64,000 nt of DNA from an uncultured Elusimicrobia bacterium (GTDB lineage: Bacteria; Elusimicrobiota; Endomicrobiia; DTEH01): NCBI GenBank assembly GCA_964508565.1, contig CAZDUB010000005.1, positions 9,756-73,755 on the forward strand, read 5' to 3'. Of this stretch, positions 2-58,152 are shown one piece after another. Within the stretch, counting starts at the first letter, position 1; each line of letters starts with the position of its first letter. The position numbers were made by a program, and so were the translations under genes. The notes beneath the pieces were generated by a model. The model was not told the origin of the DNA and did no database searches. It saw only the letters and a list, made by a program, of their open reading frames with translations.

Positions 2-3000
2 TCAATACCTTCTGTCTCAATTACGCAACCAGCTGACCTTTCATACTGGCATACATTGCTTACAATTTCAGGTAATGCTACTGAAGATATTTCTTACATT
101 TCAACAGTAACCGTTGCAATACAGAGGTTAACAGGAACTGTAAAATGGTTTGACGGTGTTGGTTTTAATTCAGATACAAGAGTTGACTTGCTTGCTTCAA
201 CAAATACACTGCCTACTTGGACATTTGGCGGGTTTGGTTCATCGCTTGAGGATAACAATAGATACAGGATTTATGTTAAAGCGTACGATGTTGCAGGTAA
301 CCAAACAGCTGATGTTACAGCAACATTTACTGTTGACCGTTCAACACCTACATCTGTTATAATTTCACCTACTGCCGGTTATTATCCAACAATTTCTTTA
401 GTTACAGGCACTGCTTCTGACCCAAACGACTATGCTTCCTGGTGTAGTAGGATTAAAATTTGGGTTTACAATGTTACAGACAACAAATACTGGGATTTTG
501 ATGTAGGCAGTTGGGGTGATGTAGGTGTTGAAAAATATAAATACCTTGATTACACAGCAGCACAACCCTTAAACTGGCAGCAAAGTTTGTCTGGGGTAAC
601 TTGGGAGGAACCAAAAGTTTACAGGATCTATGTAAAATCACGTGATCGTGCATTAAAGTCAGACGATCCTACATATGCAGGTAACTGGCAAGCAGGAACT
701 GAAGAGTTAACCGGTGCTACAATGGTAGAGTTTATAATTGATAAAACCACACCTACTGCTTCTTTCACATTGCCTGACCCGTCAATTGCTGATTATTATA
801 GAAACTACAATTCTCTTCCTACAATTTCAGGTACTGCAAACGATGCTACATCTGGTATAAAAAAGATATGGATTATACTTAAAGATAAAACATTAGGTTA
901 TTATTGGAATGGTGGTTACACAGGTACAGGTGCTGACTGGGTTGACACTATACAAAGAGTTTTTGTGTATAACAACCCAACTCCAACACCTGGCACAGTT
1001 ATATGGTATTCTTCAATTACAACACTTACAACAAACAGAAACTATCACTTATGGGTAGAGGTTGAAGATGCAGCAGGAAACAAACTTTTAGTTTCAGATA
1101 CAGACATTGGCAACAACATTGGCGGGTTACACTTCAAGTTTGATAATAGAGCACCTGTTACTTATTTAAGTTTGCCCACACCTGATAGTTATTTCAATAC
1201 TGCACTTACACAGATTTCCGGTACTGTTATAGACGATAATATCTCTGCTGGTTCAGGTGTGAGTCAGTTAAGGTTAAAGATTACTCGTGTAGATGCTATA
1301 GGCACTACATGGTATTTCACAGCACCTGGATGGTCTAATACAGGACCTGCTGCTGAGGTTATTATAACACCTACACTTATAAATGAGGCGCAAAAACTTT
1401 ATGAGTGGAGTTATAACTTTACAGAATGGATTGACAACAACAAGTATATATTCTATGTCAGGTCAAGAGATAATACACACTTAACAACTACAACACCTAA
1501 CTGGGAAACTGAAAAATCGTTTGTTGCATATTATGATATTACTAAACCTACCTCAAAAGTTACAAGACCGCCGCTGTCTGCTGCTGGGTATGACAAAGAT
1601 ATTGCTACTATATCAGGTACAGCACAGGATGTAAACACTTGGAGAAGCGGTGTCAAAGAAGTTTATGTTTCAGTTAAAAGATTATCTGATGATTTATGGT
1701 GGGGTGGTTGGACTTCGCCTGGTTTTAATTCAGCAACGCAAGTATGGTCAACGGCTACCATTGTTGAGGTTTATCAAACATCCGTCACATGGGTATACAA
1801 CATTGGTAGTTCTGCTTGGAATGACACAACTACTTACTGGGTTATCTCAAGAGTTTTAGATAAAGCTGGAAACTACGAAGAAGACTGGTCAACAAATGTA
1901 TTTATATGTGATATCACACCACCAACTGCAGCAATTACTTTCCCTGAAGAAGATCAAACTCTTGATTACAAACCAACAGTTCAAGGAACTGCCTCAGACC
2001 CTGCACCTGGTCAACTTAAAAAAATTAAAGTTGCAATACAATATGTTGGTGCAACTCCTACTACAAATGGTATCCAACCTAACTATTGGTGGTCAAAACC
2101 AGAAGGTGTGCCAGGTAGTTATTCTGATTGGATTTATTCATCCCAACCTGTATGGCTTGAAAAAACAATTTCAGGAAACTGGAGTTATGATACAGCTTCT
2201 GTTGCGTTTGATGCTACAGTTTCACCTGGGTATCCATACAAAATTTATGTTAAAGCAGTAGACCAGGCAGAAAACGAACAGACAACTACTGCTGAAAGAA
2301 AGTTCTACTATGCTGCACCTTTACCTGAGACAAAGATAACTCGTCCTGCAAACGAAGCATATTATAAGATAGATGCTGCATTCTCTATTGAAGGTACTGC
2401 GAACCAGTATACTGAAAATTCCTACGGTCCTGATGGTAAAGGTGTGTGGGTAAGAATTTCTTCAGGACCTGGATTTACAACATACTGGAATGAAGATTCG
2501 CAACAATGGTTGAGTTATTCTACCTGGAACTGGGTGAATTTAAATGAAGCAGTGACACCAAAAACTTGGGCAAGGTTGTTTAGCCAGTCAGCTTTTATTG
2601 ACGGAGTAAGATACAAAGTTGAATCCCGTGGTTATGGTCCCGCTGGACCCGAGCCTGATACAAATATTGAAGAAGTTTTCTTCTATTGTGACAGAACTCC
2701 ACCTTCCGGTGCTCTTACAACACCTGTTGATGGAGGGCATTACCAGTCAATAACTTCAATTGCTGGTACTTCTTTTGATACTTCTCCAGGAATTATAGAT
2801 TCTGTAAAAGTAAGAATAAGAAAGTTTGTTTCGCCTGACAACTACTACTATGCAGGTGGATACTGGACAACTGATCCAGGCGATCCTAACATATGGCGTC
2901 CTGCAGTTGCTAATGACGGTACATTTAATTCAAATAACGAGCCATGGACCTACACTGTAGAGTTTCCAACCGAAGCCTGGAAGGACCAGATGGTGCATTA

Positions 3001-23335: not shown

Positions 23336-26300
23336 CTACCTGCGAACTCGTTTGTTTTAATACCACAGTTTACTACTGTCGTAGCTGGGACAAAGATACA
23401 GATTACTGTTAAAGCTGCGGATGTAAACGGTGATACTGCAAAGAATTACACTGGAAGAATAAGGTTTACAGTTGATGGTTTGTATCCATCAGGAGCAGGA
23501 CCTGAGTATAAATGGACAAACAGAGCATATCAAGCAGAAGAAGGTTGGTTACCTGATGACTATACATTTACACTTGCAGATAAAGGTGTAAAGACATTCT
23601 ATACAGTACTTGTTGATTCAGAAGCGGTTAATCTTGTCAAAGCAGGTGTAAGAACAATAAGAGTAACTGATATTCCAGGTGATGGTATAGGAAGAGACAA
23701 TATTACAGGTGCTACAACAATTACTGTTGTTCCTGCAGCACCTGAGAAACTAAGAGTGGTTGTTCCTGGTGTATCAAGAGCGGCTGGTGTTGTTGGAGGA
23801 CTTAGCGGTCTTCCTGCAATACAAACTGCAGGTGTATCGTTTGATGTAAAAGTTGATGCTTGTGATAGATACTGGAATGTTGTACCATCAACATCAACAA
23901 ATGTAAGGTTAAATGTTACTGCAGGTTCTGATCCTTACACAACATCACTTCCGCAGCAAAAACAACTTCTTGACGGTTCGGGTTTGCCTCAGGGGACAAC
24001 TACATTTACAATATTCTTTGTACAAAGAGGGAATCAGTGGTTAAGAGCAGAAGATATTGGTAACACAGGCTTCTTATCACATACAATACCACAACCTGTC
24101 CCTGTGAACCCAGCTACTGCAGTAAAACTTCAGGTTATATTACCCGGTGAAACAGCAGAATGGGGTAAACCTCCATATGATACACCAGCAGGTGGTAAGT
24201 TAGGTACACCTACAACACAAATTGCAGGACAAGCTTTTGCAGTACAAGTTAACGCTTGCGATTATTACTGGAACAGAAACGATGCTGTAAACCCAACAGT
24301 AAAACTTGTCACATCTGACAAATACGATGTTGAACCATCAACTTTAACCTTAGTAAACGGTACAACTACATTCTTTGTAACATTGGTTACAGCAGCGTCT
24401 TACTATGCTGAGCTTGGTAGAATGCTTACAGGAACAACTCATTACATATATGCTAATGTCTATGAAGGTATAAACTTATCCACTGGAGTATCCTCAGGTG
24501 TAGTTGTTTTACCTGCAGCTGCTGAAAAGTTGTTAGTAGTTGTACCTGGTGAGATTCCGGAACCTGGTTCTTCAACTGGTAAAGTTGGCATACCTGCTAC
24601 ATTTATAGCTGGTACTACATACTATATTGATGTGTATTTAGTTGACCAATACTTCAATGTACACTCAACTGCAACACAGCCAGTAGTTTCATTAGACATA
24701 TCTCCTTATCCAAATCCAGCAACTTCTATTGAACAAAATCCAGCTGAAGCACAGCTTGTTGAAGGCTACAGACAATTTGCAGTTAACTTCAAAGTTGCAA
24801 CTGGACAGACAAATGGCCCATCACAAAGAAATATTGTAGCAACTGATACAGGAGGTTCAGGGACAAGTTATACTGGATATACCACAACAGCATTGTATGT
24901 TTCACCTGATGTTATCTCTAAATTACAACTAATCGTTCCTGGTGAAACTGTACAACCAGGTATTCCTGAAGGAAAAACTGGTACTCCTACGCCGAGAACA
25001 GCTGGAGTGCCGTTTAATGTAACAGTAAGGTCCTGTGATAGGTTCTGGAACCACAATACAGCAGGAACTATGGAGGTTAAACTTCTAACCTCGGATCCTT
25101 ATGATACAGAACCAGTATTCAATTTAGTTTCAGGACAAAAGATACAGTCGTTGACACTACGTCGTGCAAGACCTACAGGTAATACACTTGACAATGTATA
25201 TGTAGATATTACAGCAGTTGAAACATCCACTACACCAGTTACTTCATCTCATACAGTTTCAGGTATACTTGTTAATCCAAACAATGCAACAAGACTACAA
25301 CTTATACTACCTGGTGAAACTGCAGAACCTGGCCATCCGGAAGGTAAAATAGGTACTATTTCACCAATTACAGCTGGTACACCGTTTACGGTAGTAGTAA
25401 ACTTAGTTGACAACTGGTGGAACAGAGTTGCGTTAGATGAGCCAACTGTAAGAATACAAACACCAAACGATCCTTATGATGTTGAACCTTCAACACAGAC
25501 ACTTCAAGCAGGTCAGTATGTATTTACAAACGCTGTAGCAATAGTTCGTGCTGGAACACATACTATAACTGTTGAAGATGTGGATGGAGTAGCACCACTT
25601 TATATCTCAACAACTTCAAAGAGTTTTTATGTTCCACCAAGAGCAGCATCACAACTACAAGTGCTTGTTCCTAATCAACAAAATGTTGCAGGAAACTGGG
25701 TTGGTTCTCCAAATGGGCAGGCACCTTATGGTAAAAACACAGCTGTTACTCAAACACAAACTGCTGGAGTACCGTTTACAGTTACTGTGAATGCATGTGA
25801 TACATATTGGAACATTACAACAACAAACACTGTCGTCTGGATACAAGTGATGAAGACAGCAGCAGAGATTGATCCGTATGCTGAAGTAGAACCTGGATCT
25901 GTTAACTTAATTAATACAGCAACATTTACAGTTGTTGTAAAAACAGCACAGACAAGAAGAATAAAAGTTACAGATGGTGATGCAGGACTTCTTGACCAAC
26001 TTGGTGAAGTTTTCAATGTACAACCAGCAGCACCTTCAAAGATATTTGTATTACTGCCCGGGGAGGCAGCAGAGCCTGGTTCGCCTACTGGCAAAACAGG
26101 TACACCTTTAATACAAGAAGCAGGTTATTCGTTTATACCAACAGTTCGTCTCGTAGATAACTACTTTAACCCAACAGCAGCTTCACAGGATATCACAGTA
26201 AGGTTGACAACGGAAGATCCTTATGATAGTTATACATATGGAAGTTATATTGATTGTATGATACCTACAAACAACACAGATGCTACACTTTCGGAATATC

Positions 26301-29300
26301 CAACACTTATAACAGCAACAACAATTGGTTGGAGAATCACTGCTGATGATATCTCACCCAATATTTATGAAACATATGTTACAGAAGGAGTGAAAGTAAA
26401 GCCAAGAAGAGACGAGGCGGGTTATGAAAGAAAACTTTTAGTTACTCTGCCAGGTGAAATTTCAGTCTGGGGTAAGCCACCATATAACACAAATACTGGT
26501 GGTAAGTCAGGTGCACCACAGGTAGTAACTGCTGGATTAACCTTCTCTGTAACAGTTTATGCATGTGATTACTACTGGAATAGAATTGATGATACATTAT
26601 TTAACATATCTCCACCTGAAGGAAATCCTGTAGTACAAATTGTAACTTCAGATCCTTATGACACAGAACCTTCAGCTGAACAGTTAGTTGATGGAAGAAA
26701 GATCTTTAACATCACATTGGTAAAAGCAGGAACATTTACAATCACAGCATCTGACATTGACGGCGTTGGAATTTATTATCAGCCCTACACAACGGTTATA
26801 TCAACTTGCCAGCCAAATGTTGCAGTGAAACTCTTAGCTGTTCTTCCTGGTGAAACTTATGTCCCAGGTTCTGCTACAGGTAAGACAGGAACACCGCAAG
26901 TGTTTACAGCAGGAGTACCATTTAATATAACTGTATACGGTTGTGATGCTTACTGGAACTTACAACCTAACGCAGTTGCGCTAATAAGAATCACTGATTC
27001 TGATATTTACAACTCAACACCTGCTGCAACTTCATTAGTCAACGGACAAGCAATAATACAACATACATTTGTCACAGCAGCTACACATTATATCCTTGTT
27101 GAAGATATTGACGACAGCCCGCTTGCAAGCTATACAGTTGCTGTTGTTACTGTTACAGCTAATGCACCTACAAAACTACTTGCGGTTCTTCCTGGTGAAA
27201 CATACAAACCTGGGAAATATAATATACTGCCTTATGGTAAAGATGGGACACCTACAACACAGACAGCTGGTGTTTCATTTGATGTAACGGTTTATGCTAC
27301 TGATGACTACTACAACAGAACTTCAACATTTGTAGCTGTTTGGATAAACACACAAGATCCATACGATGTTGAACCTTCAACACAAAACTTACTTGCAGGC
27401 ACAACTGTATTTAAGTTAACATTTGTTTCAGCAACAGATTCTTTGAACTGGAACAATGTTGGTTGGAACATAGCAGTTACAGCAAATACGAATTTACAAA
27501 CTTATACTTCAGCTAATATACCTGTTGTTCCGAATTCGTCAACATTGAATGATAGAATACAGGTATTACTACCTGATGAAGTTGCACGACCTGGTAAACC
27601 ACCATATACTGACTCAACTGGTGGTAAGGAAGGAACAGTACAGAATACCACAGCAGGTAGTGATGTTCTTGCAAGAATTTATATCACAGATTACTACTGG
27701 AACAGAAGGACTGATAATGTAACAAATATTAACCTGTCCTGTGTTGGTTTCCAGGACTATGAAGGAGATGGTAAAACACCTAAGTTTGTAACTTTAACAA
27801 ACGGTACATCTGAATATTATCTTGTGTTCCACACTACAGGTAGCTGGAATATAAATGCCACACATAGTGATTATTTAAGTTATAACAGCTCAGTTATAAA
27901 TGTAGCTCCTGCTGCTGCAAAGAAACTTTTGGTCGTACTGCCTGGACAAGAGATATCGCCACTTAAACAAGAAGGAAGAAAAGGTACACCACAAAATGCA
28001 ACTGCTGGCGTAGGATACAATGTTAAAGTTTATGCATGTGATGAATACTTCAACTATCAACCAGTAGAAGTTGCATCCTCAACAGTTCGCCTTACAACTT
28101 CAGACCAGTTTGACCAGGAACCTTCAAACCTTGTTTTGCAAAACGGTACAACTGTATTTACTATTATACCGGTAACCGCTGGGACACAGACAGTAACTGT
28201 AACTGACCTGACTTCACCAATTATGGTTCCAAATACTTCTTCAATATTTACAGTTGTACCAAACAGTGCAGCAAGGTTGTTAGTATTAGTTCCAGGTGAA
28301 ACGATATTGCCTGGTTCACTAACTGGTAAACAAGGAATACCTGTTATACAAACAGCAGGTGTTGCTTTTGGTTGTACAGTCTATGCAACAGATTTGTACT
28401 TCAACCCAACAACTGACAGAACTGACTGGGTAAGAATTGATACTTCGGATAAATGGGACATACATCCTTCAACACAACAACTTGTAAACGGAACAACAGT
28501 TTTCTTTGTTACATTTGTCACAGCAGGCGAGCAACAACTTTATGCAGTTGACACTGATGCTCCATATTTACAAACATCTACAAGTTCAGTTATAACAGTC
28601 CAACCAAAGACAGATGTTTTATCTGAACTTAAACTCCACATAATAGTACCAGGTGAGACATACGAACCTGGCAAATGGGAAAATGGTGTAAATCCTGTGC
28701 CTTATGGTAAGATAGGTTCACCTACACCACAAGTTGCTGGAAACAACTTTACAGTAGATGTTTATCTTGTAGATAAATTCTACAACAGGGTGTACTCAGG
28801 AGTACCAATGCCATGGGTACAATTGGTTAAAGTTGGAGATTACGATCCATACGCAATCTATCCTTCATCACAGCAGTTAATAAATGGTGCAACAACATTT
28901 GTGCTACAATTTAGAACTTCAGGTTGGGGACTAGTTCCTTCAAGTTGGACAATTACAGCAAGAGATATTGATGGTACAGAACCAGCATATCCTGACGCTG
29001 TATCGCCAAGAATAGTTGTGCAACCAAACATTGCAAAGAAACTGCAAATAATACTGCCAGGTGAAACATGGGTGCCTGGTTCAAATGAAGGTAAGACAGG
29101 TACACCTGAAGTTTGGGTTGCTGATTCAACAAGAACAATCACAGTACAAGTATGTGATGACTACTGGAATGTTACAAATACGAATATTACTGCTTTACTT
29201 ACAACTGAAGATCCGTTTGACACACCAGATCCGCAATCGTTGGGTATAACAAACGGAAGAATCTATGTTGACAGAAACTTAGTTACAGCAACAACTGATG

Positions 29301-32300
29301 GCTGGAGAATCACAGTTTCTGCTTCTGGTTTAATTGAATATGTTTCACCTAAAATTGTTGTAAATCCAGGCGAACCAGTGAAACTGCTTGCAGTTGTACC
29401 TAATGAGATATATTTACCAGGTTCGCTAACTGGTAAAACAGGTACAGTGGTACCACAGCAAGCAGGAGTTCCATTTACAATAGCTGTATATATCACAGAT
29501 AGCCGTTGGAACCTTGTAACCTCAACAGCAGCGTTAATACAGGTTGAAACTGAAGATCCATATGATATTACTCCTTCTGCTAAATCTACAACAAACGGTA
29601 TGGCTACATTTGATATTGAGTTCAGACGAGGTGTTGGTGAGCAATATAGGATCATCGTTTCAACTGCAGCAGGCAACAATTTACAAAAATATGTGACTGT
29701 ACCAATCCAGTCAAATCCTGGTCCAGCAACAAAACTGCAAATATTAGTCCCAGGCGAAACAGCAGTGCCTGGTAAGTGGGATACTTATGGTAAAATTGGT
29801 ACACCGAATGTCTGGTATGCTGGAGCACTTTATCCAGTAGTTGTGAATGTAGTTGACAAATATTGGAACCCAGTACCTACTGTTAACACAACTGTTAAAC
29901 TTACTGCTACAGATCCATACTACGAACCACCTTCTGATGCACCAACTACAAACGGTACAGTTACAATTTATACCTCACTTGTGACTGCGACAACTGAAGG
30001 TTGGAAAATAACAGCTTCAACTGCACCAGCTGCTGCAAATCCGTACTTAACTTCTGACACATCGCCTAATATCAGAGTATTACCAGGTCGTGCTGTGAAA
30101 CTTTTAGTTTTAGCACCCGGTGAAAAACCACTACCAGGTTCACCAATAGGTAAACAAGGTACACCTGTTGTTCAAGTTGCAGGTTCGTCCTTCACAGTAA
30201 CAGTACATGCAACAGATAGCAGATGGAATATCGCAGAATCTTCACATGTAATAAGAGTTACAACGGACGACTTATACGACACAGAACCCTCAACACAAGC
30301 ACTTATTACGACAAATGAATATTTAAGCATTGCGACATTTACATTAACACTTATAACAGCAAATCGTGGGCCGCTTGATCCGCAAAATAGAAATACAACA
30401 ATTACAGCACACGATGTAACTGAAGGTATATCTGATACCGAAAGATTAACTTCAGGGAATACCATTGTTCCTGTTTCACCTCAAGCAGCACAGTATCTAA
30501 TATTGTTAGTCCCAGGGCACACACATAATCCTGGTAAACCACCATATTATCCTGAAGTTGGTGGTAAAGATGGTACACCGCAGACACTTACAGCAGGAGT
30601 TACTTATTATGTCACCGTTGCAGCTTGTGATTTATACTGGAACATAAATCCAGCTCACAACCCACTTGTGAAAGTTTGGACTTCTGACCCATACGATACA
30701 GACCCCACACCGCTGGGGCTTGAAAACGGAATGAAACAATTCCCGATAAACTTAAGAAGGGCAACATTATATCAAGGTTTACAAGAATCTTTGACTATTT
30801 ATGCAATACACAATGCTGACCCACAACAATACGCAGCTGCACAGGTTGGTGGTATACAGGTTTCGCCAGAGCCTACAGCGATACAACTTTTAGTCCTTGT
30901 ACCTGATCAACAACACGAACCAGGTTCAGTTTTGGGCCGTACCGGGCCCGTATCACAACAGGTTGCAGGTGTTGGATTTGATGTAAGAGTATATTGTGTT
31001 GACAGGTTTAACAACATTGTACCTATAGCACAACCCGGTGTAACACTTACATCTTCTGACCCCAACGACGGTGTTGGTGCTGAAACAGGTATTGGCTGGG
31101 ATCCAACTTATCAACCATTACTTAATGGAACAACTGTATTTAGAGTTACACTTGTGACAGCTTCAACCTGGCATTATCTTACTGCTGAAGATACTGATGG
31201 TAATCCACCATATTATGGAAGAAGAGATTCGTCTTTAATATATGTAAATCCGGGACCCGCAGTTAAGCTACAATGCTTACTACCAGGTGAAACACCAAGA
31301 CCTAATACTACAAGAGGTAAAGAGGGCACACCTCTTACCCAAGTTGCAGGTCAACCGTTTAATGTGACAGTCAAAATCACAGATATACTCTGGAACTTAG
31401 TACCTTCAGCAGGTGCAAATGTTAAACTTATAACGCCTTATGACGACTATGATGATGAACCCACACAGTCAACAGTGAATGGTGAAGCAGTAATTGAAAA
31501 AGTTATTTATACTGCATCACAAGAGAGGAATGATACAAATCCACCATATTGGGAACCTTATAAATACCATATAATTATAGCAACAGATACTGGTGGATTG
31601 TACTTAACAAATGTTTCTTCAACATTTACTGTTACTTCTTCAACATTTACAAGGTTACATGTGATACTGCCTGGTGAGAAATATGTGCCTGGTAAACCAC
31701 CATATTATGGTAGCGGCGGTAAAGAAGGAACACCAGTTGTACAAACAGCAGGTGTACCTATCTCTGGTGGGACAATTATCAGGTCAGGTACTACAATTTA
31801 CTTCAATGTAGCTGTCTTTGCAGTTGATAATTACTACAACTTAGTATATTCAGGACAACTTGTTTCTATACAAACAACAGATCCTTATGATTCACATCCG
31901 TCCCCACAAGCGCTGAATTTAGGTTATGTAAACTTTGCAAATGTTGCAATGGTGACATCTTCAAGTTGGACTATAAAAGCATCTGCTTCTGGTGTGTCAG
32001 ATGGTATATCCTCTCCTGTGTTCATTAGACCTAATGTTCCATCAAGGTTAGCTATTTATGCACCAGGTGAGATACCAACTCCTGGTTATACTGCAGGTAG
32101 AGGTAGAACAGGCACTCCTATCCCACAAACAGCAGGCTTAACATTTGGTTGTACAGTTTATGTCTGCGATGCGTATTATAACCCAACATCTTCAGAACCA
32201 GTTGTTACATTAAAAGTTGATGATTGGGATATAGATAATCAGGTTTATAGAATCATAAGGACACAACAACTTATTCAAGGTACTACTGTATTCTTTATAA

Positions 32301-35300
32301 AGTTAGCAGCAGCAAAGATTTCTGTGGCTTCTGTTACAGCAAGCGGTTTAGCAATGGATTATACTGGTGGTATACAAGTAAATCCTTCTACACCTTATAG
32401 GTTATTAATACTACCTCCTGGTGTAACAGCAGAGCCTGGAAAACCACCATATGTTTCTTCAGAGACAGTTACAATGGGTGGTATAAACGGAACGCCATTA
32501 GCACAAACAGCAGGTGTCCCATTCAACATTACAGTTCGTGCGGTTGACCAATGGTGGAACAAAACTTCAGCACAGCCAATAGTAACACTTGAATCAAACG
32601 ACCCATGGGATTATCCTACACAACAACAGGTTCAACTTGTAAACGGTGAGTATACTTTAAGTTGGACACTTGTTACAAGAAATGATACTGGTTGGTATAT
32701 AAGAACAGCGAACTCTGTTTCACCAACACTTGTATCTTACAGAACTGCAAATATACCTGTAGTTTCTAACACAGCAACTTCACTTAAGATTTATCTACCA
32801 GGAGAGTATCCAGAATGGGGTGAAACTTCAAGTAATCCTTCAGCAACAGTACCTTATGGGATATCTGGTATACCGCAAGACTGGACCGCAGGTGTACCAA
32901 GACAAGTTGTAGTTGCAGCGGTTGACAACTGGAACAACAGAAACGATAGCGATGTTTCGCCGGTGAAACTCACACCAACAGATCCGTTTGTTTCAGCACA
33001 GACATATGGATTAACTAATGGTTCTGCAACATTCACATTTACATTAGTTACAGCAGGCACACATACATTTGTTGCAGAAGACCAAGAAGCCCCGCTGCTT
33101 AATTCTTATTGTTCTTCAGTATTTACAGTAAAAGTTTCAACCTGGGGTAAACAGCTACATATAACCTTACCAGGTGAAACATATGTCCCAGGTCGTCCAC
33201 CATATGATGTTGATGAACAAAACAGGATTGGTGGTAGTGGGGGTAAAACAGGTACGCCATTAGTACAGACAGCTGGTGTACCATTTGTGGTAACAGTTCG
33301 TGCAGTAGACTCATTCTATAACTTGCTTACTGATGAAGTTTCGCTCGTAAGAGTAACACCTTCAATTTCAAACTACGCAGCTGACATTGGCCAGCCTTAT
33401 GAAGGATACATAGTTGAACCGCAAGAACAATCATTAGTTGGTGGTGTTTCAACATTTACAGTAACACTGCTTACTGCACACTCAACATGGACACTTACAG
33501 CAGAAGATGTAGATGCAACTCCTACACTTGCAAAAGGTCGTGCAAAGGTTTATGTCAAACCTAACAATCCAGTGAAACTTCAAGTGATTGTACCTGACGA
33601 GGTTGAAAATCCAGGTTCATCTTTTGGTAGAATAGGTTCAGTTAGAACACAAACTGCAGGTGTTGGATTTACAATAAAGGTGAACCTCTGTGACCAATAT
33701 TGGAACCGTGTAAAAGAAGGTTCAATGCCACTTGTTTCTATCTGGAGTTCTGACCCGTATGATGTGCATCCAACAGCGTTAACACTTGTAAATGGTCAAA
33801 GGTTGTTTAATGTAACACTTGTAACTGCTTCTTCAGTAACAATTACTGCGTCTGGTGGTGGATATACTATCGGAGTTTCTTCACCTATACCTGTCATACC
33901 AAATGTTCCAGCAAAACTCCTTGTTGTTGTACCACCACAACAACAGGTTAATGGTAAAAATAACTCACCTGAAGGTAGAACAAATGTTGCTGTATCTACA
34001 CAGACAGCAGGTGTACCGTTCCAGGTGCAAATCTATGCAGTTGATAACTACTACAACTTTGTCTCAACTGTAAACCAAACAATTACAGTTACAACTTCTG
34101 ACGATTACGATACAGATCCTGGCAATGTCACAATGGTAAACGGTGTTACTACTGCTACAATTGATTTTAGAACCGCAAAACCACAAACAATAACGGCAGT
34201 GGATAATGATCCTAACAGTCCAAACTTACAATCTCATACTTCATCTTTGATACCTGTACAACCCAATGTCCCAAAGAAGTTACATATTTGTGCAGCTGGT
34301 GAGGTTTATGATCCGGGCAGGCCTCCATATATACCTGGTTCAGCTGTTGGTGGCAAACAAGGGACACCGTCAAACCAAACAGCAGGTACTTCGTTTAATG
34401 TTGTAGTAAGAATTACGGATGATTATTGGAACTTAACTTCTGTTTTACCTTCAGGAGTAACTGTACAGATTAACACAAACGATATTTATTCGCCATCTAA
34501 TAATACACAATTTGTATTGTATTCTTCAGCTGTAATTTCTGTAACTTTAGTCTCAGCATCTTCATCTACTGCTGATAAAGTTATTTATGTTGAAGATATT
34601 GACGGTGTTGACCCAACATTATCTTTAGGTAGGACACAAAACATATTTGTAGGGCCTGGAACACCAACAAAACTATTGCTTGTCTTACCAGGACAGACAC
34701 TTGTAGGTGGCCATCCAAGAGGTAAAATTGGTACACCACAAGTTATAACAGCAGGGCAACAGTTTACAGTGACAACAGCTATAACAGATGCTTACTTTAA
34801 CCCTGTACCTGGTGTCTCTGTAACATTACAAGCTGACTCACCACTTGACAACTATGATTCAGAACCTTCACCTAAAAATGTAGACACTGTTACAGGTAGA
34901 CAATACTTTGATTTCACACTTGTTACAGCAGCAACACATTACTTAAGAGTACGCGATGTTGACGGTGTACCCCCACTTTATCAAGAGTATCCAGCAAATC
35001 CTTTAGATCTTGTTGTTTCCACATTTACAGTAAAACCAGCAAATGCTGTAAAACTTCAACTTATATTACCTGGTGAAACACCAGTTGCTGGTAAATACAA
35101 TGTTGCACCTTATGGTAAGACAGGATATCCTACAAACCATGTTGCAGGTGAGTTGTGGTATGCAACAGTTAGGTTAGTAGATGCTTATTATAACTTAGTA
35201 ACAGATGTTTCACCACAACCTCAAGTTGCAGTACGCACAGCTGACCCGTTTGATATAGAACCATCTACAGAACCATTGACTTCAGGTCAAGGTGTATTCC

Positions 35301-38300
35301 CAATCGTGTTAAGGACAGCAGCAACCTGGCACTACTTAGTTGCTGAAGATGTGGACGGTATTGACCCACAATATCAGTCAGATGCTTCACCAATGTTTAC
35401 AGTAGAACCTTCAACACCTACAAGGTTATTAGTACTTGTACCAAATGAGACATTTGTCCAAGGTTCACCTTATGGCAAGACCGGTACAATTCAAGATTAT
35501 GTCGCAGGACAAAGTTTTGTTGCGACAGTTTATCTTGTAGATGAATACAACAACCGTGTACGCAGTGGCTGGCCAATGCCAAATGTTGGCATTACAACTT
35601 GGGACCCAAAAGATTCTGAGCCATCTCCAAAGATATTAATTGATGGTGCAAACAACTTTACCTTAACACCACTACATGCATCTTCATCTTGGACATTAAC
35701 AGCATGGGATGTTGACGGACAAGAACCCTATTATCAACCAGGTACCTCTTCATTTATCCGTGTATGGCCTAATGTTGTGCATCATATGCATATTGTTGAT
35801 TATCCAACTACAGTAGTAGCTGGGACTGGTTTCTCAGCAAAGGTTGTTTTGTATGATCAATATGAAAACATCGTCTCAACAGGTATAAATTGGGGGAATT
35901 ATGCAAACGCTGGTTATAAAGTAAAATTTGACGGTGAATACTTCACACCGCCACAAACGCCAGAACTGCCAAGTGAATATGATTGGGTTGTATCTGATTA
36001 TGGACAGAGAACATTTAGTGGTATAGTATTAAAGAAAGCAGGACCGAGATGGATTAAAACATATCAAACAAATCCGCTAAATACAACTATATCTTCAGAA
36101 CGGCCTTGTGATCCTAACCCAAACCGTACAGGTGAAGAAGGAGAACACGGATCATTGTATACATACATTAATGTGCAACCAGGACCTCCTGCAAGCTTCT
36201 TTGTAGTTGAGTCTACAGCAACAGCCGGAACTGAGTTTTACGCATACGAAGTTAAAGTGCCTGCAGGAACGAGGTCTGACTGGGGGAAAATTCAGGTAAT
36301 AGCATATCTCTCAGATGCTTACGCTAATATTGTACCATCAAGTGGTGTCCCGGTACAGATAGAATTAATAGAAGTTGTAGGTTCAAGTGGAGTTGTTTCT
36401 TACACTTCGCCGGCTTCTGATTCTACCCTACCTGAACCTGTTTACTATGCGATAACAGATTCTTCAGGTGTTGTTGGTCTTAACCCACCATTGTATTACT
36501 ATATGTCACATAAACTTGGTGATTCAGCGAAAGTGAAGTTCTCAACTGGAACAATTGTTGGTACAACAAGAAAAATAACTACCATTGGTGGAACACCATA
36601 TAGATTAGTAGCATTGAACCCACCGACAGAACTTACAGCAGGTAACGAAACTCCATATATTGTTATCCAAAGAAGAGACGAATTTGATAACCCAACCTAT
36701 CAAGGTGACACCTGGGCACAACTTGTTACAAATTCGCTTGCAAAACAACAACAGCCACAAAGACAGTGGGATTTCCGCAGTGCATCTGGTGCTGATAATA
36801 CACTTGGACCTGATTATGTAATATGGTTCTACAACTCAATTAAATCAACTTCAGTTGCAATAATTTACTACGATGAGATGTCTTCAATACCTGAAGGTGA
36901 AGATGGTAGACCTTCCTCAGGTAAGTGGACCATACAAGCTCAAGCTTTTGGGAATGACCCTGCACGATGGGCAACATTTGACTTGTTAGTAAAACCCGAT
37001 GAGATTGTAAAAGCAGCGTTTGACAATCCACAAAGAAAACTAACCGCTGGTTCACCTAAAGAATATACAGCAATAGGACCCGGTCCTAATGCTTTAGAGT
37101 TTGAAGTTGAACTACAAGATAGGTGGAACAACCCTGTCCGGACAACATATACAGTGACTGTATTACTATCTTCTGTGCGTCAACCATCAAGGTTTAACGA
37201 TTCGTATTCATTCTCGTTATCAAGTCGTGTAGTTGGTGGTCCAGCATACGGCACACCGCCTTTATTTGAAATACCAATTACTTCTTTCACAATAAATGCT
37301 GGAGAGTATTACAAACAGTTCTACTACCTTGATACAAACGCTTCAGAAAACTACGGAATTGCTCCAACTACACACCCTGTTATTGTTGCTACGCCTTTAG
37401 GACAAAAAGGTGATGGTACACCTTGGGTTGCAGCTCAACAATCGGTTTTGATTATGTCGGACAGAATCCGTCGTATTGGTATTTACGGAAAATATTCTAT
37501 ACCGCCAGATACTACATATTTACAAACACTTACAGCAGGTGTAACTTCACAAGCATTTATGCTTGCTACAGAGGACTTCTATGGCAACATTGCACCGATA
37601 CTTGAAGCAGACCTTTCAGGTGATAATCCAAGAAGAATAAGAATAGTTTCCACATCTACTGGTACTGTACAGTTTGCAGTAGGTTCAACTACTACATGGA
37701 CTATAGGCGAAGGTGTAGCATACTTTAAATTAGGCGACAGAACCACAACCTTCTATCTCATAGACACACTTGCTACTGTCCGCTATGGTAGATATGATAC
37801 CACTCATACACTATATGCAGATACTGTTGTAAATCCCGGTATGTGGACAATAGGAACTAGACCTTATAGAGTACTCCCTAACATAGCACACCATCTTGTA
37901 GTGACCACACCACCAAGACGGCTTATTGCTGGCACCACCATACAATTTGACGCTACAGCTTCCGACACATCCACAACTACAGTTTCAGCAAAAGGTGGCC
38001 CAATGGTTATTACAAAGAACGGTCAGCCGACATTTACGGGAATAACCGTACAGATAAGAGACGAATTTGAAAATGTTACAATTTCTACAGAAAACATAGT
38101 ACTATTAGCTGAAGTTTTAGACTCCCCACAAGCGTATGGTTCAATAGACCCAACACAAGATTTGGACAGTGCTGGTTGGACGCTTATGACAGGTGGTGGG
38201 AATATGTTGAATATGTTGTTACCTGCTGGTAATGAGAGCATTACATTTTACTATTTTGATACTGTTACTGGAAGCCATACAGTAAAAGTGTCTGGGAAAA

Positions 38301-41300
38301 CCGCATCTGGTAGAGACATATTACCGCTTTATCAACAACACTACATAACACCAGCTCCAATACAATACTTTACTATCCATCATCCTTTCACACTTTCAAA
38401 TCCGCTTCGTGTACACGAACCAGGCTTACTTACAGTTAAAGCAAGAGATAGGTATGGTAATGTTGCCTCAGGCGATTCTATCAATGGTCAGTGGTATACA
38501 GGTACAATTGTATTTTCACATTCAGGAAATCCTGAAAAAGTCACATTAAAAGATGCATTGAATCTAACTACATATTATACATTTGTGAAAGAAGATGCTG
38601 GAGTATATAACAGATTGCAAATTATTGACCAGATACAGGAAACACTTAAAGTGTTCGTTACTGATTATGCAACAATACAATTGCCAGATGAAGAGCCTAA
38701 CAAGATATATGGGTTTACAGGTGATACATTTAGAGAAGTACCTGTACATTCTGACGGCGATGTTATAACCTGTGGTATAGTGGTAGAACCAGCAGATCTT
38801 GCACCGGTACCTTATGGTGATGATGACAATCCAGAGACTACCTGCGATGATAGTTATGATAAAAAACAAGAATTGCTTGAAGGTACTATCTATCAAGGTA
38901 AGACAGCACTATTTCAAGGAGATGGAAACACCTATGAAAAACCGGCAGCTGTACCTATGTTGCGTTTAAACTTAAGAGTACTACCACCTACCGTAGCAGA
39001 AACAGCAACATGGACACAACTAAGAGTAGATAAAAAAGGTACTGCTTTACCACAGGATGTATGGATTGGATTGTACTACGATGCTAACGGGGACGGTAAA
39101 TTCCAGGGCGAGACAGTACTAGGTGGTACATCACCTGACCCGTTAGTAGCCGTGGGCGAATACGATTCTATATCAAATGCTTGGTTGTTCAAGAATATGT
39201 CGGAGTTCATTTCTGTGGTTTCAAAAAACTACTTCTTATGTGTACGAATCTCTACCGTAGCACAGCCGGGCACATATCTCGGATTAGAAATAAACAATCA
39301 CAACTATCTAACAATGGTAGGTGTGGCTCGTGTAGCAGCAAACAACTTTAGCATATTTACAGACACCTCTGCTATAAAGAGAGAAGAGGCAAAAGTAGTT
39401 TGTGTTGCAGAAGACATTGCTGCTTCGGTTGAGACAACGAGGTCTACAACTGTTTATCAAGGTCAACCTAACGCTGGTATGCTAAGAATAAAGATATGGA
39501 CAAAAGGTTATACTGCATATCTTAACGGATTTAAAATTACACGAACAGGAAGTGGCTACGATAGTGATATAAAAGGTGTTGCATTGTTTATAGATGATAA
39601 CGGTACAGGGGACCCATCTCAAGGTGATGGTATATTCCAACCAGCGTTAGACCGTCGTGTATCTGATTGGGTGAGTTTCTCCACAAGAGCAGCTTTAGTG
39701 TATCTAACTACTACACAAGAGATTTCTCCTTCAACAATTACATATTTTGTTTCATACAAAATTGCTGATTCAGCTTATATAGGTAAGACACACGGAGCTG
39801 CTATAGTTGATGCAGCAGATATAAGATTAGGAGAAGGCGTTGTTTTACCAATACCAGGTTACAATTCTTCTTTAGTAACAGTAATCCCAACTTCAGATGA
39901 AATGAATCTCGTTGATTATAATAAGACACAACCCAACAACTTCTCAATACCTGGTGCTGCAACACAAGGTGATAAAGATGTAGTAGTTGCAAGATTGACG
40001 CTGCAGACATTACAGCGTACAGCAATATGGACAGGATTAAAACTTGACAGATACAATCCAAACAAAGTAAACCAGCCAGAAGATATAGAAAACATAAAAG
40101 TTTACTACGATACTAATGGGAATGGTTTGTTTGACAAAGACATTGACCAACTTGTATCTCCAACTGACAGAAAATATACCTTCCCAGTAACAAAGCTTAA
40201 AGTAGATGTATCGTCCACAGCATCTACTATTTATGTAGAAGATGTATCAAAACTTGTACTATCACCAACAATTGATTTCTCACCATTCCCAGAAACTCCT
40301 GGAAGAGTGGTATTATCTGATGGCTCTGAGAATTTAGAAGTTGTATACTTTAGCGGTGTAGACAGACAACAGAATGCTCTTACAGGATGTCTAAGAGGAC
40401 AAGAAGGTACGCAAGCTCGTTATCATCCAGCGGGCTCAAAAGTTTCAGGTCAGGCAGTGTTGTGGATACTTGGTAACTTCTATGACTTAGGATCTTACAG
40501 AGTAGGACAAGAGATTTTATCTGAATATCCAAAAGATTACTTTATAACCGTTGATATAAGTTATCTTGCAAAAGTACACGAAGCGTCCCAGTTAGGTATA
40601 TCAATAAGGTCTACTGATTATTTCAAAGTAGTAGAACCTGACTTTGTCGCAAACAGGTTTGGTATAATAGGTCCGAAACCGCAAGGTAAATCAGAGTCCG
40701 GTATAGGTTCTATAATGGAATATCCTGATAAAGTTACATTCAAGTTTGTAGATATATCTACAGAAGTTGTAGCTTATCTACAACAGGGAAAAACAAATGT
40801 ACCAGTTGCCGCAGTAGTAGTCTACACAGATCAATCAGAAGCTTGGTGGCAACAACTTAATGTATGCGGAATAGGTACAGCAACAGATAACAACTTATTA
40901 ACTGACGAAATAAAATATGTTAAGATTTGGTATGATGTAAATAATAATGGTTATTTAAACACGGATACAGATATATGTATAGCAACAGCCACATTCGGCA
41001 ATGTAGGAAAACCACTACTATCGCAGTTTGTCTTCCCTGTTGCTCCAAAAATAGTAACACAACAAAGAGCACAATCTGAACGTATATCTCAGAGATACTT
41101 CATAGCAGTTGACATTGAAGAAAACGCATATCCAGAACAAACATTTGGAGTTGCTATAACAACAGTTACAGATATTACAGTATCATTGCCAAACTATGTA
41201 GACACTTCTTCATCAACTATACCATTTGAGACAGTACTAAGAACAATAATACCTTCTCCAAGAATGGTCACAGTAGATGCGCAACCACTCTGGCTTGATA

Positions 41301-44300
41301 AAAATGGCAATGTTATTACTCAACCAATAAAATTAGCAGCACCTATTACAAATGAGGATACAGCAATCCCACTCAATATCTCAGCAGTTGACTATAACTT
41401 GCCGGAATCAGGGTATGTAGTAATGGATAATGAAATAGTTATATATTCAACAATATCTTACCAAGGTTTATTAGGAGTGTCTCGTGGAGTAGAGGGATCA
41501 TTTGTTGGTAGTCACTCTTCAGGTAGCCTTGTAGGATTCTCTGTAGTACAAGGACAGAAAAATGTTCCAATGTTGAAGTTAGTAATGTACTGTAGTGGAT
41601 TCCAAGTACAGCTACCATCTATTAAGTTTGTAAGGACACAACCATCTCCACTTAATGGTGATGATGCAGATATTGCAGCAATTAAAGTCTGGAGAGACAA
41701 TGGAGATGGTGTACTTAATAGAGATCCACAAACCGGTTTCATTTCAGTCGATGTAGAAACATTAGTAGGGCAAGCTAAATTTGGACAATCACCAGACCCA
41801 ACCGCTTCTGCTACTGTTTTACTTAACGATCCGCAATACAATCGTGGTTATGTATTAATAACTACAACACCTACAATTTACTGGGTAACAGTAGATATAT
41901 CACCATCTGCTAAATTTACACATCCACAGATTTCTAACTTAAACGAAGTGTTTGGTATGAATATTCCATTACCTACAAACTTCAACTTAGCGCCTAAAGA
42001 AGCGGGCCACTGGATATCAACATCAACTTCATTAGGTACACCTTCATTCCCAATACAGACACCTGTTCATGCGATAGTCCCCACAGTAGATACATTGATT
42101 GTAGAAGGAGAAGGAATACTTCCTCCTGGAGTTTACCAGAACCAGAAGAATGTAGGAGTATTAAGATTAAACTTCAAAGCAAATAAGAATTCAGTCACAA
42201 TCAAAAAAATCAAAGTAAAAATGGATGGGACAGCTGTGGATGGGGATATAGCATTAGTTAAGGTTTGGAAGGATCTAAACAATAATGGTATATTTGATGT
42301 TGAAGATACTACTAGAACAGCTAAAGGAGAATATCCGGGGCTGATATCTTTTGGTACAGATAGACTCTCAGACAAAGTTGTAGATATAGAGTTAAAAACA
42401 CCTCAAGTTGTAGACGATTCTCCTACAGGCACAAACTTGTTTATAACATTTGACATTGCAGAGTTTGCAAGATTATTCGCAAAATTCTCTGTTTCAATAG
42501 AAGATGAAAGCTATATTACAGTAGAAGTACCAGATAATGTAGAATTCAAAGTTAAACCGATTGTTTCTGGAGAATCAACAATATATGAAGCACCATCACA
42601 AGTTATAGCTCGTGTATATGATTATGCAAAGGATATAGCCAATCAAGGTGGAACATATCAAGCAGAGAAAAATGTGCCTGTATTAAGAATCAAGATGAGA
42701 ACAGATGTATCACAAGCATACTGGACAAGAATAAGATTAGAAAAAACAGGTTCTTCTTCTGATCCGTCTTTACCTTATGGTAAAAATACAGATGTAGGCT
42801 ATATTAAGATATACAAAGATGTAAACTTCAATGACCAACTTGATTCTGCTGATACATTGTTAAACGAAATACAAACAGAACTTGTAGTTGATATATCTTC
42901 AGTTACAAATCCACCATTCTTGATGGTTATAAAGTCTTCTGTGTCATCAGTAGGTATATTCCCACAAAATCAGCCACAGCTATGGGTAAAAGTAAACGAT
43001 GAAATATTTGAATACACAAAAATAACCACAACCACAATAGATTCGGTAGAATATCCAGCACTTTATATTACAAAGAGAGCACATTTAGGCACATATGCTG
43101 CTTACCACTCTTCAGGAAGTATTGTAAGAAAATGTGATATGTATTACTTAAACGACGATCTTAACAGACAAAAAGAAGTTACACTAATTCAACCGCAACT
43201 TATTTCACCAACGCCACAAACATACTTTATCGCTTACGATATAGGTGAAAATGCTATATCTGGGAACGCTGTTGGTGTAAAGATTATTGGTAAAGAAGCA
43301 ATAACCATAGAATATCCTAACGAAGCGTCTCCTATGGTAGAAATTGAGCAAGATTTCAATGGTACAACCGTAGAAAATGCTTTTTATCCTTATGAAACAT
43401 CACTAATAAGAATAAATCCTATAAATGTATACATTACAGCAGAATCAGTTGCTCCTGTACAAGTACCTCAAAGAACAAAGAATGTACCACTTATGATGGT
43501 ATCTATTAATACCGATAGAAACTACATAACAGTAAAGAAAATAAATATTACCCAAACAGGAACAGTTCAAACTCAAGGAGCAATTGGTGGTTATGGCCAG
43601 GGTGATTTATCAGCAGTTTCTCTATGGTTAGACAATGGAGATGGTTTCTTCTCACCAGTGCTTGATATGTTTATTACTTCTGTTACACATCCTACTGTTA
43701 ACTTTAGTGGAGGAGCAGCAAGGTTTACTTTGCCGGATAAAGGGTTGTATATATCCACATCACCTGTGAGATTATTTATAGTAGGTGATATAGGCAAAAC
43801 AGACCTTGCAGGTACCTCAACTAAAGACCACTATGTTGGAGTAGAGATAACTTCATTTAAGTCATTAGAAATAATACCTAATACTGTAGAATCAGTAATT
43901 ACAAACAAATTCCCATTGAGGTCGTCTTTAGTTTTGATTCTTGACGAATATGCACCAAGGGTAATGCCAAGATGGGTTGTCCTTGCGGAAAAGAAAGTAT
44001 GGGTAAATCCATTTGGAGACGGATATCCAGCAATTGATGTAGACGGCGATGGAAAACCTGACCGAGTTAATAGAGACGGAGAAGTGTTTATAGACATTGA
44101 TGGAGACGATGTAAACGACCTTGAAGATTTAGATGGAGATGGCCGCAAAAACGATATTGATTTAGTTGGTGATGGTAAACCTGCAATAGATATGACAGGC
44201 GATGGATTGTTAGATGTTGATTTAAATTGTGATGGCAAACCTGACTCAATAGTACCGGATGTTAATGGCGATGGAATCCCAGAAGTTGATTTAAATAGAG

Positions 44301-45508: not shown

Positions 45509-45618
45509 TTTCTTACCATTAAATATTTTTTCACCTTTATGTAATTTACATTTTTTGGTTTTAATAAGAAATCTTTTATACCATTATATTCATCTAAATT
45601 ATAAGGAGTAGCATAAGA

Positions 45619-45647
45619 TTGACATTTTGATAAAAATTATATATACA
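45619..45647 (+). promoter_or_regulatory. Candidate sigma70-type promoter for the downstream gene array
   Basis: TTGACA at 45619-45624, a 17-nt spacer, then TATACA at 45642-45647. It lies in the only sizeable intergenic gap (45509-45729, 221 nt) and about 80 nt upstream of the cyclophilin start. AT-rich DNA gives many chance matches. Confidence 0.3.
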
Positions 45648-45729
45648 AAAAAATATTTTGAAATTTTATAAAATTTCTGTCAATTTTTAAATAATTAAAT
45701 AAGATTTTTTATCTTAAGGGGAAGAAAAT

Positions 45730-46356
45730 ATGAAAGTAAAGAGGTTATCTTTATATTTTTTGCTATTTTTTATATTTTGCATCGCAACATTATTTGCTCA
45801 ACCAACTCAATACTCAGAAAAATCAATTTTTAAAGGCTTACCCAAAGGATATTATGCAGCAATTATAACAGATTTTGGACCCATAGTATTTGAACTATAT
45901 GAGGACAAAGCGCCAAAAACAGTAAAAAATTTTGTAGACTTAGCTTTAGGTAAAAAAGAATGGATTGACCCAAAAACAGGTAAGAAAGTAAAAAAAAGAT
46001 TTTATGATGGATTAATTTTCCATAGAGTAATACCAAACTTTATGGCACAAACTGGTTGCCCAAAGGGTGACGGAACAGGTGGCCCTGGTTATGAGTTTGA
46101 GGATGAGTTTAGTCAAGATTTACTTTTTGACAGACCAGGCCGCGTAGCAATGGCAAATCGTGGACCGAATACAAATGGTTCTCAGATTTTTATTACTGTA
46201 GTGCCAACTCCATGGTTGAACATGAGACACACAATTTTTGGACAAGTTGTGAAAGGCCAAGATGTAGTAGAGAGAATTGTTTCTGTACCAAGAGACAGTA
46301 AAGACAAACCGTTGAAGCCAATTTATATAAGAAAAGTTTTGATTAAGAGAATATAA
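45730..46356 (+). CDS. Secreted cyclophilin-type peptidyl-prolyl cis-trans isomerase
   Basis: 208 aa. It has an N-terminal signal peptide ([23 protein letters not shown]|QP). Cyclophilin motifs are [39 protein letters not shown] and HTIFGQVV. The RBS AAGGGGA lies about 7 nt upstream. Confidence 0.9.
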
Positions 46357-46360
46357 TTAT

Positions 46361-48180: not shown

Positions 48181-48183
48181 ATT

Positions 48184-49299: not shown

Positions 49300-49357
49300 T
49301 AGTAATTTTGTATTAAATGGAAATTTAGTATTAAAACAAGAAAATATTCTGATAAAA

Positions 49358-49364
49358 AAGGAGG
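49358..49364 (+). promoter_or_regulatory. Shine-Dalgarno site (AAGGAGG) for the acyl-CoA dehydrogenase gene
   Basis: AAGGAGG lies 8 nt upstream of the ATG at 49373, within a 73-nt intergenic gap. Confidence 0.7.
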
Positions 49365-49372
49365 TTTAATTT

Positions 49373-50530: not shown

Positions 50531-50533
50531 AAA

Positions 50534-52530: not shown

Positions 52531-52550
52531 TTTTTAGAGGTGTAAAAAAT

Positions 52551-53757: not shown

Positions 53758-53760
53758 GTT

Positions 53761-54303: not shown

Positions 54304-54305
54304 TT

Positions 54306-55178: not shown

Positions 55179-55182
55179 TCTA

Positions 55183-57094: not shown

Positions 57095-57102
57095 AACAAA
57101 CT

Positions 57103-58149: not shown

Positions 58150-58152
58150 TGT

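Follow-up and report, generated by a model that had tools for sequence, protein, structure and literature searches.

The first 45.5 kb of a 64,000-nucleotide window from an uncultured Elusimicrobia bacterium (contig CAZDUB010000005.1 of assembly GCA_964508565.1) are filled by a single giant open reading frame (ORF), and we found this frame to be a real gene for an array of immunoglobulin (Ig)-like modules. The array ends in a cassette of so-called C modules, a fibronectin type III (FN3) domain and a C-terminal domain (CTD) of the sorting type, and this cassette is common to many large Elusimicrobiota proteins. In our view the gene likely encodes an enzyme-free surface fibre of about 0.5 µm that is exported by the Sec system and sorted by its CTD, with the cassette nearest the cell. 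This explanation is carried by the reality of the gene, its architecture, the predicted module folds, the homology of the CTD and the sharing of the cassette.

A real gene of more than 15,000 codons

An earlier note on this DNA, made from the letters and a list of open reading frames, had described one uninterrupted frame of 15,168 sense codons, and translation of the window confirmed it, with the stop at nt 45506-45508. Over nt 2-45508, the other five frames carry 624, 893, 940, 968 and 1,311 stops, and a chance origin of the open frame is thereby excluded; at about 7% stops per codon, the odds of such a frame would be roughly e^-1100. The ORF start that is mechanically assigned to a TTG at nt 56 is meaningless, as the frame continues without a stop up to the edge of the window. 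The window does not open within a module, as had been assumed, but at a module boundary (position 2 of the module's hidden Markov model, HMM) inside the first array, the A array.

It could be argued that the frame of a metagenome-derived sequence results from mis-joined or collapsed repeats, from a chimera or from a decaying pseudogene, and does not represent one translated gene. Assemblies do break at the public orthologues: every examined public orthologue or relative with arrays of the A or B module type begins at most 130 nt from a contig end, as is the case with P0027, P0032, P0045 and P0057, and the gene starts lie at nt 130 in locus L004, 53 in L005, 31 in L006 and 113 in L007. Such genes routinely break short-read assemblies, and the public protein lengths of 3,800-6,500 aa represent truncations. 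However, the modules of the window protein are merely 26-35% identical as protein, the longest exact direct DNA repeat within the 45.5-kb ORF has 26 nt, and the best DNA identity between modules is 72-84% over at most 118 nt, a dissimilarity that makes collapsed or expanded repeats implausible. At the 3' end, an independent assembly, the Logan contigs of run DRR163687, is 100% identical to nt 41608-48227 and 48334-58586.

Comparative evidence comes from an orthologue on CALFVX010000001.1 ('uncultured Endomicrobia bacterium isolate H1_Bin_MAXBIN__072_1', a GTDB representative genome; locus L003), the only one that a search of GTDB representative genome contigs returned. It is colinear with the window protein module for module, with 59% identity over 3,819 aa, and it is open for 6,685 codons. 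Over the first 1,000 codons, the proportions of synonymous and nonsynonymous differences (pS and pN) were 0.66 and 0.25, and the resulting dN/dS of 0.19 indicates purifying selection on the translated frame. Orthologous modules are about 60% identical and paralogous modules 26%, which means that the array predates the split of both organisms and has not been homogenised. A second orthologue, MCS7151963.1 from the Endomicrobia metagenome-assembled genome (MAG) GCA_025059805.1, extends from the last B modules to the C-terminus, is cut by the contig end, and has a downstream synteny that equals that of the window. Chimerism, repeat collapse or expansion, and in-frame stops, which the earlier note had named as what might speak against the gene, were not seen, and we regard an artefact as hardly credible: the giant frame is a real gene. 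Neither the giant protein nor its Endomicrobia orthologue is contained in an index of 5.8 billion proteins, in which all matches had at most 1,108 aa, and since giant ORFs appear to be missing from this index, the low number of matches does not imply that the family is rare.

The orthologue also showed that the protein is larger than its visible part, as had been supposed. Residue 3 of the window protein aligns to residue 2980 of the orthologue, whose start thus lies about 2,977 residues upstream, at an ATG at nt 1499 of L003. This ATG shares bases with the stop codon of the gene upstream, which encodes an exported HEAT-repeat protein. The N-terminus, MSKTKQYKNFWLEIIYVTIFLVLIVSNLYA, resembles a signal peptide when read by eye, and it is followed by a head of about 900 aa (L003 1499-4200), in which a (W/Y/F)xG(T/S)xW motif occurs at least nine times and motifs of the type W(I/M)(R/K)L.A(N/D)P occur three times, spaced by 55-110 aa. 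These motifs suggest propeller-like blades; the head has no Pfam or NCBIfam family and no meaningful match among PDB sequences. Some 17 further A modules lie between the head and the point that matches the window start. If colinear with this orthologue, the full protein would comprise about 18,100 aa (about 2 MDa) with about 79 A modules, and the gene, which is chromosomal, would measure about 54 kb, the window holding its 3' 84%. Upstream of the orthologue start, a toxin-antitoxin-like MNT/HEPN pair (nucleotidyltransferase and HEPN) precedes the HEAT-repeat protein gene (L003 215-1502).

The visible product has a mass of 1.67 MDa and a pI of 4.8, and Thr, Val, Ser, Gly and Pro are abundant in it, proline making up 6.7%. 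No match to the repeats-in-toxin (RTX) motif GGxGxD was found in its 15,168 aa, nor was a YD/RHS motif, a transmembrane-like segment (19-mer) or, in Pfam and NCBIfam scans, an enzyme family; the earlier statement that no enzyme, toxin, RTX or YD/RHS motif is recognisable thus stands. With 39-40%, the GC content of the giant ORF exceeds that of the window (36%) and of the flanking genes (25-33%). The excess of about 10 points over the neighbours reflects amino-acid composition, as it is located entirely in codon positions 1 and 2 (GC 0.44-0.50 in nt 2-45508 versus 0.34 in the neighbours, nt 45730-63040). At the third position (GC3), the values of 0.20-0.25 for the giant ORF and 0.18 for the flanking genes are similar, and a foreign origin of the gene was ruled out on these grounds. 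The giant ORF is a compositional island by its amino-acid content, and this could mislead binning or detectors of horizontal gene transfer.

Zonal architecture and module folds

Tile self-BLAST revealed a strict zonal order along the protein, and the modules were counted with HMMs built on the giant protein itself (Table 1). The zonal layout and the counts that the earlier note had given were essentially exact, with a tandem Ig-like stalk array of 62 A, 32 B and about seven divergent modules visible, followed by eight C modules, Asp-rich loops, FN3 and the CTD. It had also left two of the three major module families without a name, and this agrees with our scans, in which B and C had no Pfam or NCBIfam family.

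Table 1. Positions of the features in the window, of gene clusters in related loci, and N-terminal parts of related proteins that carry the same C-terminal cassette
Feature	Position or protein	Strand	Description
Giant ORF, 3' 45.5 kb	2..45508	+	15,168 codons + stop; 5' end outside window
Zone A	5..23302	+	aa 2-7767; 62 Ig-like modules in tandem, ~125 aa each; pairwise identity 26% on average
A/B transition module	23303..23731	+	aa 7768-7910; Big_1-like motif
Zone B	23732..35770	+	32 back-to-back modules of ~125 aa, aa 7911-11923; mean identity 35%
Divergent zone	35771..38893	+	aa 11924-12964; ~5-7 degenerate Big_1-like Ig modules by motif count
Zone C	38894..43951	+	aa 12965-14650; 8 modules of ~175 aa, a D.N.(N/D)G..D loop in every module
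Mini-domain in C module 3	40283..40492	+	motif RG.EGT.A..H..G..V; weak Rcc01698_C match (E 9.5e-5)
Further mini-domain copies	41399-41542, 42989-43120, 44603-44746	+	same RG.EGT.A..H..G..V motif
Asp-rich stretch	44009..44326	+	aa 14670-14775; five DxDxDG-like putative Ca2+ loops at aa 14679-14763
FN3 domain	44822..45163	+	aa 14941-15054; family-profile match
CTD	45164..45505	+	aa 15055-15168, 114 aa, ending RKIGVIR; FlgD_ig / type-A sorting domain-like
Peptidyl-prolyl isomerase (PPIase), cyclophilin type	45730..46356	+	signal peptide; 222 nt downstream of giant gene
PorV-like/FliG-like/MotAB cluster	L007 20144-29633; L008 23235-29392; L009 21709-28641		
PorV-like/FliG-like/MotAB cluster	L010 27274-34274; L011 26061-33125; L012 4979-7329 and 18958-20763		
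N-terminal passenger	P0036		Kelch + FN3
N-terminal passenger	P0053, P0062		NHL + LamG
N-terminal passenger	P0044		FG-GAP + LamG
N-terminal passenger	P0057, P0045		B arrays, 29 and 16 modules
N-terminal passenger	P0056, P0084		A + B arrays

The A modules have weak and mostly sub-threshold Pfam matches to Big_13, Big_7, Big_3_2 and Big_3_3, and their relatives in the databases come from Elusimicrobia and are annotated as 'Ig-like domain repeat' or as hypothetical. The count of 32 B modules uses natural boundaries; when the register is shifted, 33 modules and one divergent copy are counted. An AlphaFold2 model of the B module, with the 32 paralogues as alignment, predicted an all-β Ig-like sandwich with a pLDDT of 96.2, for which Foldseek returned solely generic Ig-like sandwiches at TM scores of 0.5-0.66 (the α2-macroglobulin MG domain, filamin, Ig domains of glycoside hydrolase (GH) family 2, and PKD). 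At the sequence level, B modules weakly match the invasin-type Ig domains of FUS1p in the PDB (E 0.02), and a word-index search with the B profile found just seven short fragments, one of them annotated as Big_1 + filamin; both observations agree with the Ig-like fold of the model. The A and B modules are thus Ig-like, the fold of B as judged from its model. Paralogous modules reach a maximum identity of 51%, and we detected no higher-order super-repeats in the A and B arrays, identity being independent of lag. The divergent zone, recognisable by the motif AG..(I/V)..D.(F/W/Y).N, is conserved in close orthologues.

For the C module, AlphaFold2 predicted a β-sandwich of about 160 aa with a pLDDT of 94.6, and the best PDB matches of this model were the N-terminal non-catalytic β-sandwiches of Bacteroidetes GH33 sialidases (E 3.5e-4), with a TM score of about 0.5 and a root-mean-square deviation of 7-10 Å. 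Judged by this model, the C module is an unclassified β-sandwich family without a close solved structure. Among PDB sequences, C modules match solely the dockerin Ca2+ loop (E 0.09). Two C modules are split by inserts of about 45-70 aa, which are two of the four copies of a mini-domain of this size with the motif RG.EGT.A..H..G..V. The orthologue P0027 has retained these copies. The mini-domain weakly resembles the C-terminus of the gene-transfer-agent protein Rcc01698. The FN3 domain, which Pfam alone missed, was recognised with a family profile that matches FN3 domains of titin and contactin at E-values of 1e-15 to 1e-58.

A conserved C-terminal cassette with a sorting-type domain

An exhaustive profile search with the C module identified 1,685 representative proteins at E<=1e-3, 751 at E<=1e-10 and 241 at E<=1e-30. 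A word-index search with the same profile gave none at E<=1e-10, and the index is therefore insensitive to modules of the B and C type. C-module proteins typically have 7-10 copies near the C-terminus and a length of 3,000-7,200 aa. Among the best 150 of them, 69 carry a homologous CTD that ends in K(I/V)GVI(H/R) about 300 aa past the last C module, 46 have FN3, and 19 have the Asp-rich loops. The layout of the window protein, with eight C modules, FN3 and a CTD ending in RKIGVIR, matches that of P0036, P0044, P0053, P0062 and others, and the N-terminal parts of such proteins are entirely different (Table 1). C modules, FN3 and CTD thus represent a conserved cassette that is common to many large Elusimicrobiota proteins.

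By sequence homology, the putative anchoring or sorting element in the window protein and in these 69 proteins is the CTD. In its family, FlgD_ig and TIGR04183, the type-A sorting domain from type IX secretion systems (T9SS), each match 24 of 24 aligned members at E<=0.01, and Por_Secre_tail (PF18962) matches 16 of 24. The family profile matches the CTD of PorU (6za2, residues 1055-1149) with an E-value of 3.3e-7 and, marginally, PorZ (5m11; E 0.013). The C-terminus is thus of the sorting type, as the earlier note had proposed, and on these profile matches the CTD family shares homology with the type-A sorting domains of the T9SS; no T9SS has been described in this phylum. All named members of the C-module family come from MAGs of Elusimicrobiota, Endomicrobia or Elusimicrobiales, and a test of the host group placed them and the orthologues in Endomicrobia or Elusimicrobiota and not in Bacteroidota or the FCB (Fibrobacteres, Chlorobi and Bacteroidetes) group. 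We found no publication on a T9SS, on PorV or on such a CTD in Elusimicrobiota. Compared with Bacteroidota T9SS type-A cargo and the CTDs of PorU and PorZ, the KIGVI(H/R) ending and the obligatory upstream FN3 and C-module cassette are specific to the Elusimicrobiota family.

Our explanation of these data is the following. The protein would be exported by the Sec system, the signal peptide having been seen in the orthologue, and its CTD would direct outer-membrane passage or attachment via a partner of the PorV family, as homology and synteny in relatives suggest. The conserved C cassette would then be nearest the cell, and about 120 Ig-like modules would project the N-terminal head outward as a filament resembling fibrillar adhesins, which by simple arithmetic, with about 4 nm for each Ig-like domain, would reach a length of about 0.5 µm and could be rigidified by Ca2+ at the loop motifs. 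The export route, the anchoring, the rigidification by Ca2+ and the ligand or use, be it adhesion, predation or a sheath, are what we infer.

Several observations weigh against this explanation. The CTD of the window protein itself scores below the curated cutoffs, with 19.3 bits for TIGR04183 (cutoff 23) and 26.9 for FlgD_ig (cutoff 27), and the 18 kb downstream contain no PorV-like gene, no T9SS core gene (SprA/Sov, PorK/L/M/N, PorU or PorV) and no other secretion gene. The T9SS is generally held to be restricted to Bacteroidota and the FCB group. What is seen of the N-terminus comes from an orthologue of 59-73% identity and not from this genome, the window contains no adhesive or ligand-binding domain of Pfam or NCBIfam, and only DxDxDG and dockerin-like loop motifs suggest that Ca2+ stabilises or rigidifies the fibre.

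Giant adhesins of the RTX type, such as MpIBP (1.5 MDa), SiiE, LapA and BAP or BapA, are secreted C-terminus first by type I secretion systems (T1SS) and held by an N-terminal plug, and the window protein might be one of these. They are likewise megadalton proteins (PMC4083281; PMC4647330) with about 100 tandem Ig-like domains and putative Ca2+ sites, and their distal region is projected from a Gram-negative surface; the acidic character and the Asp-rich loop motifs of the window protein would fit as well. However, besides lacking the GGxGxD nonapeptide, it ends in a β-sandwich of the T9SS/FlgD_ig type and not in a T1SS signal, its orthologue begins with what reads as a classical signal peptide for Sec, and genes for an ABC transporter, a membrane fusion protein or TolC were found neither in the 18 kb downstream nor in the 1.5 kb upstream of the orthologue start. 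Its repeats are highly diverged (26-35% identity), whereas those of MpIBP are near-identical (PMC4083281), and the window protein is probably oriented the other way round, its C-terminus being closest to the cell. An RTX adhesin is thus very improbable.

It is also conceivable that the protein is not a sparse adhesin that binds with its tip but a structural component of the envelope that is present in many copies, such as a sheath, an S-layer-like coat or a matrix scaffold. The failure to recognise an adhesive tip domain, including in the head of the orthologue, the location of the gene among envelope and lipopolysaccharide genes, and the wide sharing of the C cassette all agree with this idea. 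On the other hand, relatives that share this cassette have passengers typical of ligand binding (Kelch, NHL, LamG and FG-GAP), a monomer of 2 MDa would be costly for an abundant coat, and the conservation of individual modules between orthologues suggests more than bulk filler. We therefore consider a structural coat improbable, and a CTD-sorted fibre remains our preferred reading.

Gene neighbourhood and relation to known systems

In six Elusimicrobiota relatives, the gene right after the cassette-bearing cargo gene encodes a tetratricopeptide repeat (TPR) protein of 515-600 aa, whose N-terminus was a barrel of the PorV/PorQ family in all three cases tested (NF033709 with 127, 84 and 82 bits; cutoff 90). 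Next to the TPR gene, the six loci encode a FliG_M/FliG_C protein, which is often a fusion with a histidine kinase (HisKA/HATPase); in L012, FliG-like genes lie upstream of the cargo gene. A coiled-coil or uncharacterised protein then precedes MotA/MotB, which were found in four of the six loci, and response regulators are encoded upstream in three. In the Endomicrobiales locus L005, MotB/MotA lie directly downstream of the cargo gene on the opposite strand. Core T9SS genes were absent from the flanks of the relatives' cargo genes. The six-locus cluster may represent a novel module for secretion or gliding, or it may belong to flagellar operons.

SprB of Flavobacterium johnsoniae is a gliding adhesin and T9SS cargo (PMC8986121) of about 6,500 aa. 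Like SprB, the giant protein appears as a very large, repetitive and non-enzymatic surface filament of a diderm, with a putative signal peptide at the N-terminus, as read in the orthologue, and a β-sandwich domain of the sorting type at the C-terminus, and in Elusimicrobiota relatives the cassette is linked to genes of the PorV family and for MotA-type stators. The giant protein comes from another phylum, is about three times longer, has A, B and C module families of its own, and its CTD resembles type A, not type B; GldK/L/M/N or SprA were not seen, and the putative motor link is absent from the window. By analogy, the giant protein could be the mobile cargo of a motor-driven surface machine composed of the PorV-like barrel-TPR protein, the FliG-like protein and MotA/MotB, which would secrete or propel the fibre, an idea that draws on the loci just described. 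However, the cluster genes are absent within the 18 kb downstream of the window gene and from the orthologous locus L004, the association is one of synteny only, ordinary clusters for flagella could account for FliG, MotAB and FlbD, and we found no publication on such a machine; we therefore consider this role decidedly improbable. A broader variant is that the cassette marks the cargo of an undescribed Elusimicrobiota machine for outer-membrane secretion or surface propulsion, made up of a PorV-family barrel with fused TPR repeats, a FliG-like protein that often carries a histidine kinase, and a MotA/MotB stator. Such a machine would be related by descent to the T9SS and the gliding motor of Bacteroidota, in a phylum from which none is known, and the window protein, at about 18,100 aa, would be the largest cargo found. 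We regard this as unlikely, though worth keeping in mind.

Close parallels are the giants of Omnitrophota (Archaeovorin and dockerin types; bioRxiv 10.1101/2023.11.21.568195), which are also metagenomic, exceed 15,000 aa, come from an uncultured phylum that the study places in the PVC (Planctomycetes, Verrucomicrobia and Chlamydiae) supergroup, are largely unannotatable by HMMs, and have been proposed to act in attachment. They carry transmembrane segments and SecA-like, peptidase and GGDEF domains and lie beside loci that resemble type II secretion systems, whereas the window protein is a pure β-sandwich array with a T9SS-like CTD and none of those domains, and its downstream genes are housekeeping genes. 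The same study reports that proteins of >=10,000 aa were 'frequently detected' in Elusimicrobiota, and of the PVC-supergroup phyla that it surveyed, none but Omnitrophota had proteins above 30,000 aa; another survey showed that Elusimicrobiota are enriched in uncharacterised proteins above 5,000 aa (PMC11573180). The earlier note had called proteins of this size very rare in prokaryotes, which does not apply to Elusimicrobiota, and as both surveys report huge proteins in the phylum, a giant ORF is not surprising there in itself. In their accessible parts, these surveys (PMC11573180; West-Roberts et al., 2023) concern the same phylum and size class and give counts only, with no architecture, cassette, CTD or neighbourhood.

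Judged by the literature that could be searched, four aspects are new: the architecture in its resolved form, the B and C families, which are unclassified, the cassette of C modules, FN3 and T9SS-like CTD that is shared across the phylum, and, in relatives, the link of this cassette to genes of the PorV-like, FliG-like and MotAB kind. Outside Omnitrophota, few bacterial genes for proteins of more than 15,000 aa have so far been seen as completely as the one in the window, and comparative evidence backs its reality. It turns a statistic on huge Elusimicrobiota proteins into a concrete plan, with a variable N-terminal passenger, an Ig-like stalk of individually conserved modules and a C-terminal base cassette that is found throughout the phylum, and the C module defines an unclassified β-sandwich family of 1,685 representative proteins. 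The conserved cluster that came to light through the relatives could be a new apparatus for secretion or gliding. If the proposed sorting route is true, the recognition of T9SS-type CTDs reaches beyond the FCB group, and it would be explained how an ultrasmall diderm displays a fibre of about its own cell length.

The gene that follows the giant gene encodes an exported PPIase, and this position is conserved in the orthologous locus (L004 12109-12738; also L001 4123-4749). No terminator-like site was found between the two genes, and the PPIase may be a periplasmic folding helper for the proline-rich giant protein. PPIase genes near Omnitrophota giant genes have also been noted by West-Roberts et al. 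(bioRxiv 10.1101/2023.11.21.568195). Scans of the window for tRNA genes and Rfam families found nothing. Further downstream are genes for DnaJ, RsmE, a MiaB-like enzyme, an acyl-CoA dehydrogenase, YmdB and XseA, followed by kdsD, kdsC, lpxL, lptC, lptA, lptB, hpf, ptsN, rapZ, yvcK, phosphotransferase system genes and a gene for a GH57 enzyme. The presence of KdsD, KdsC, LpxL and LptC/A/B in the window indicates a diderm host. The order kdsD-kdsC-lpxL-lptC-lptA-lptB-hpf-ptsN-rapZ (nt 52780-59040) follows the proteobacterial order lptB-rpoN-hpf-ptsN-rapZ without rpoN, and the gap between lptB and hpf is just 12 nt.

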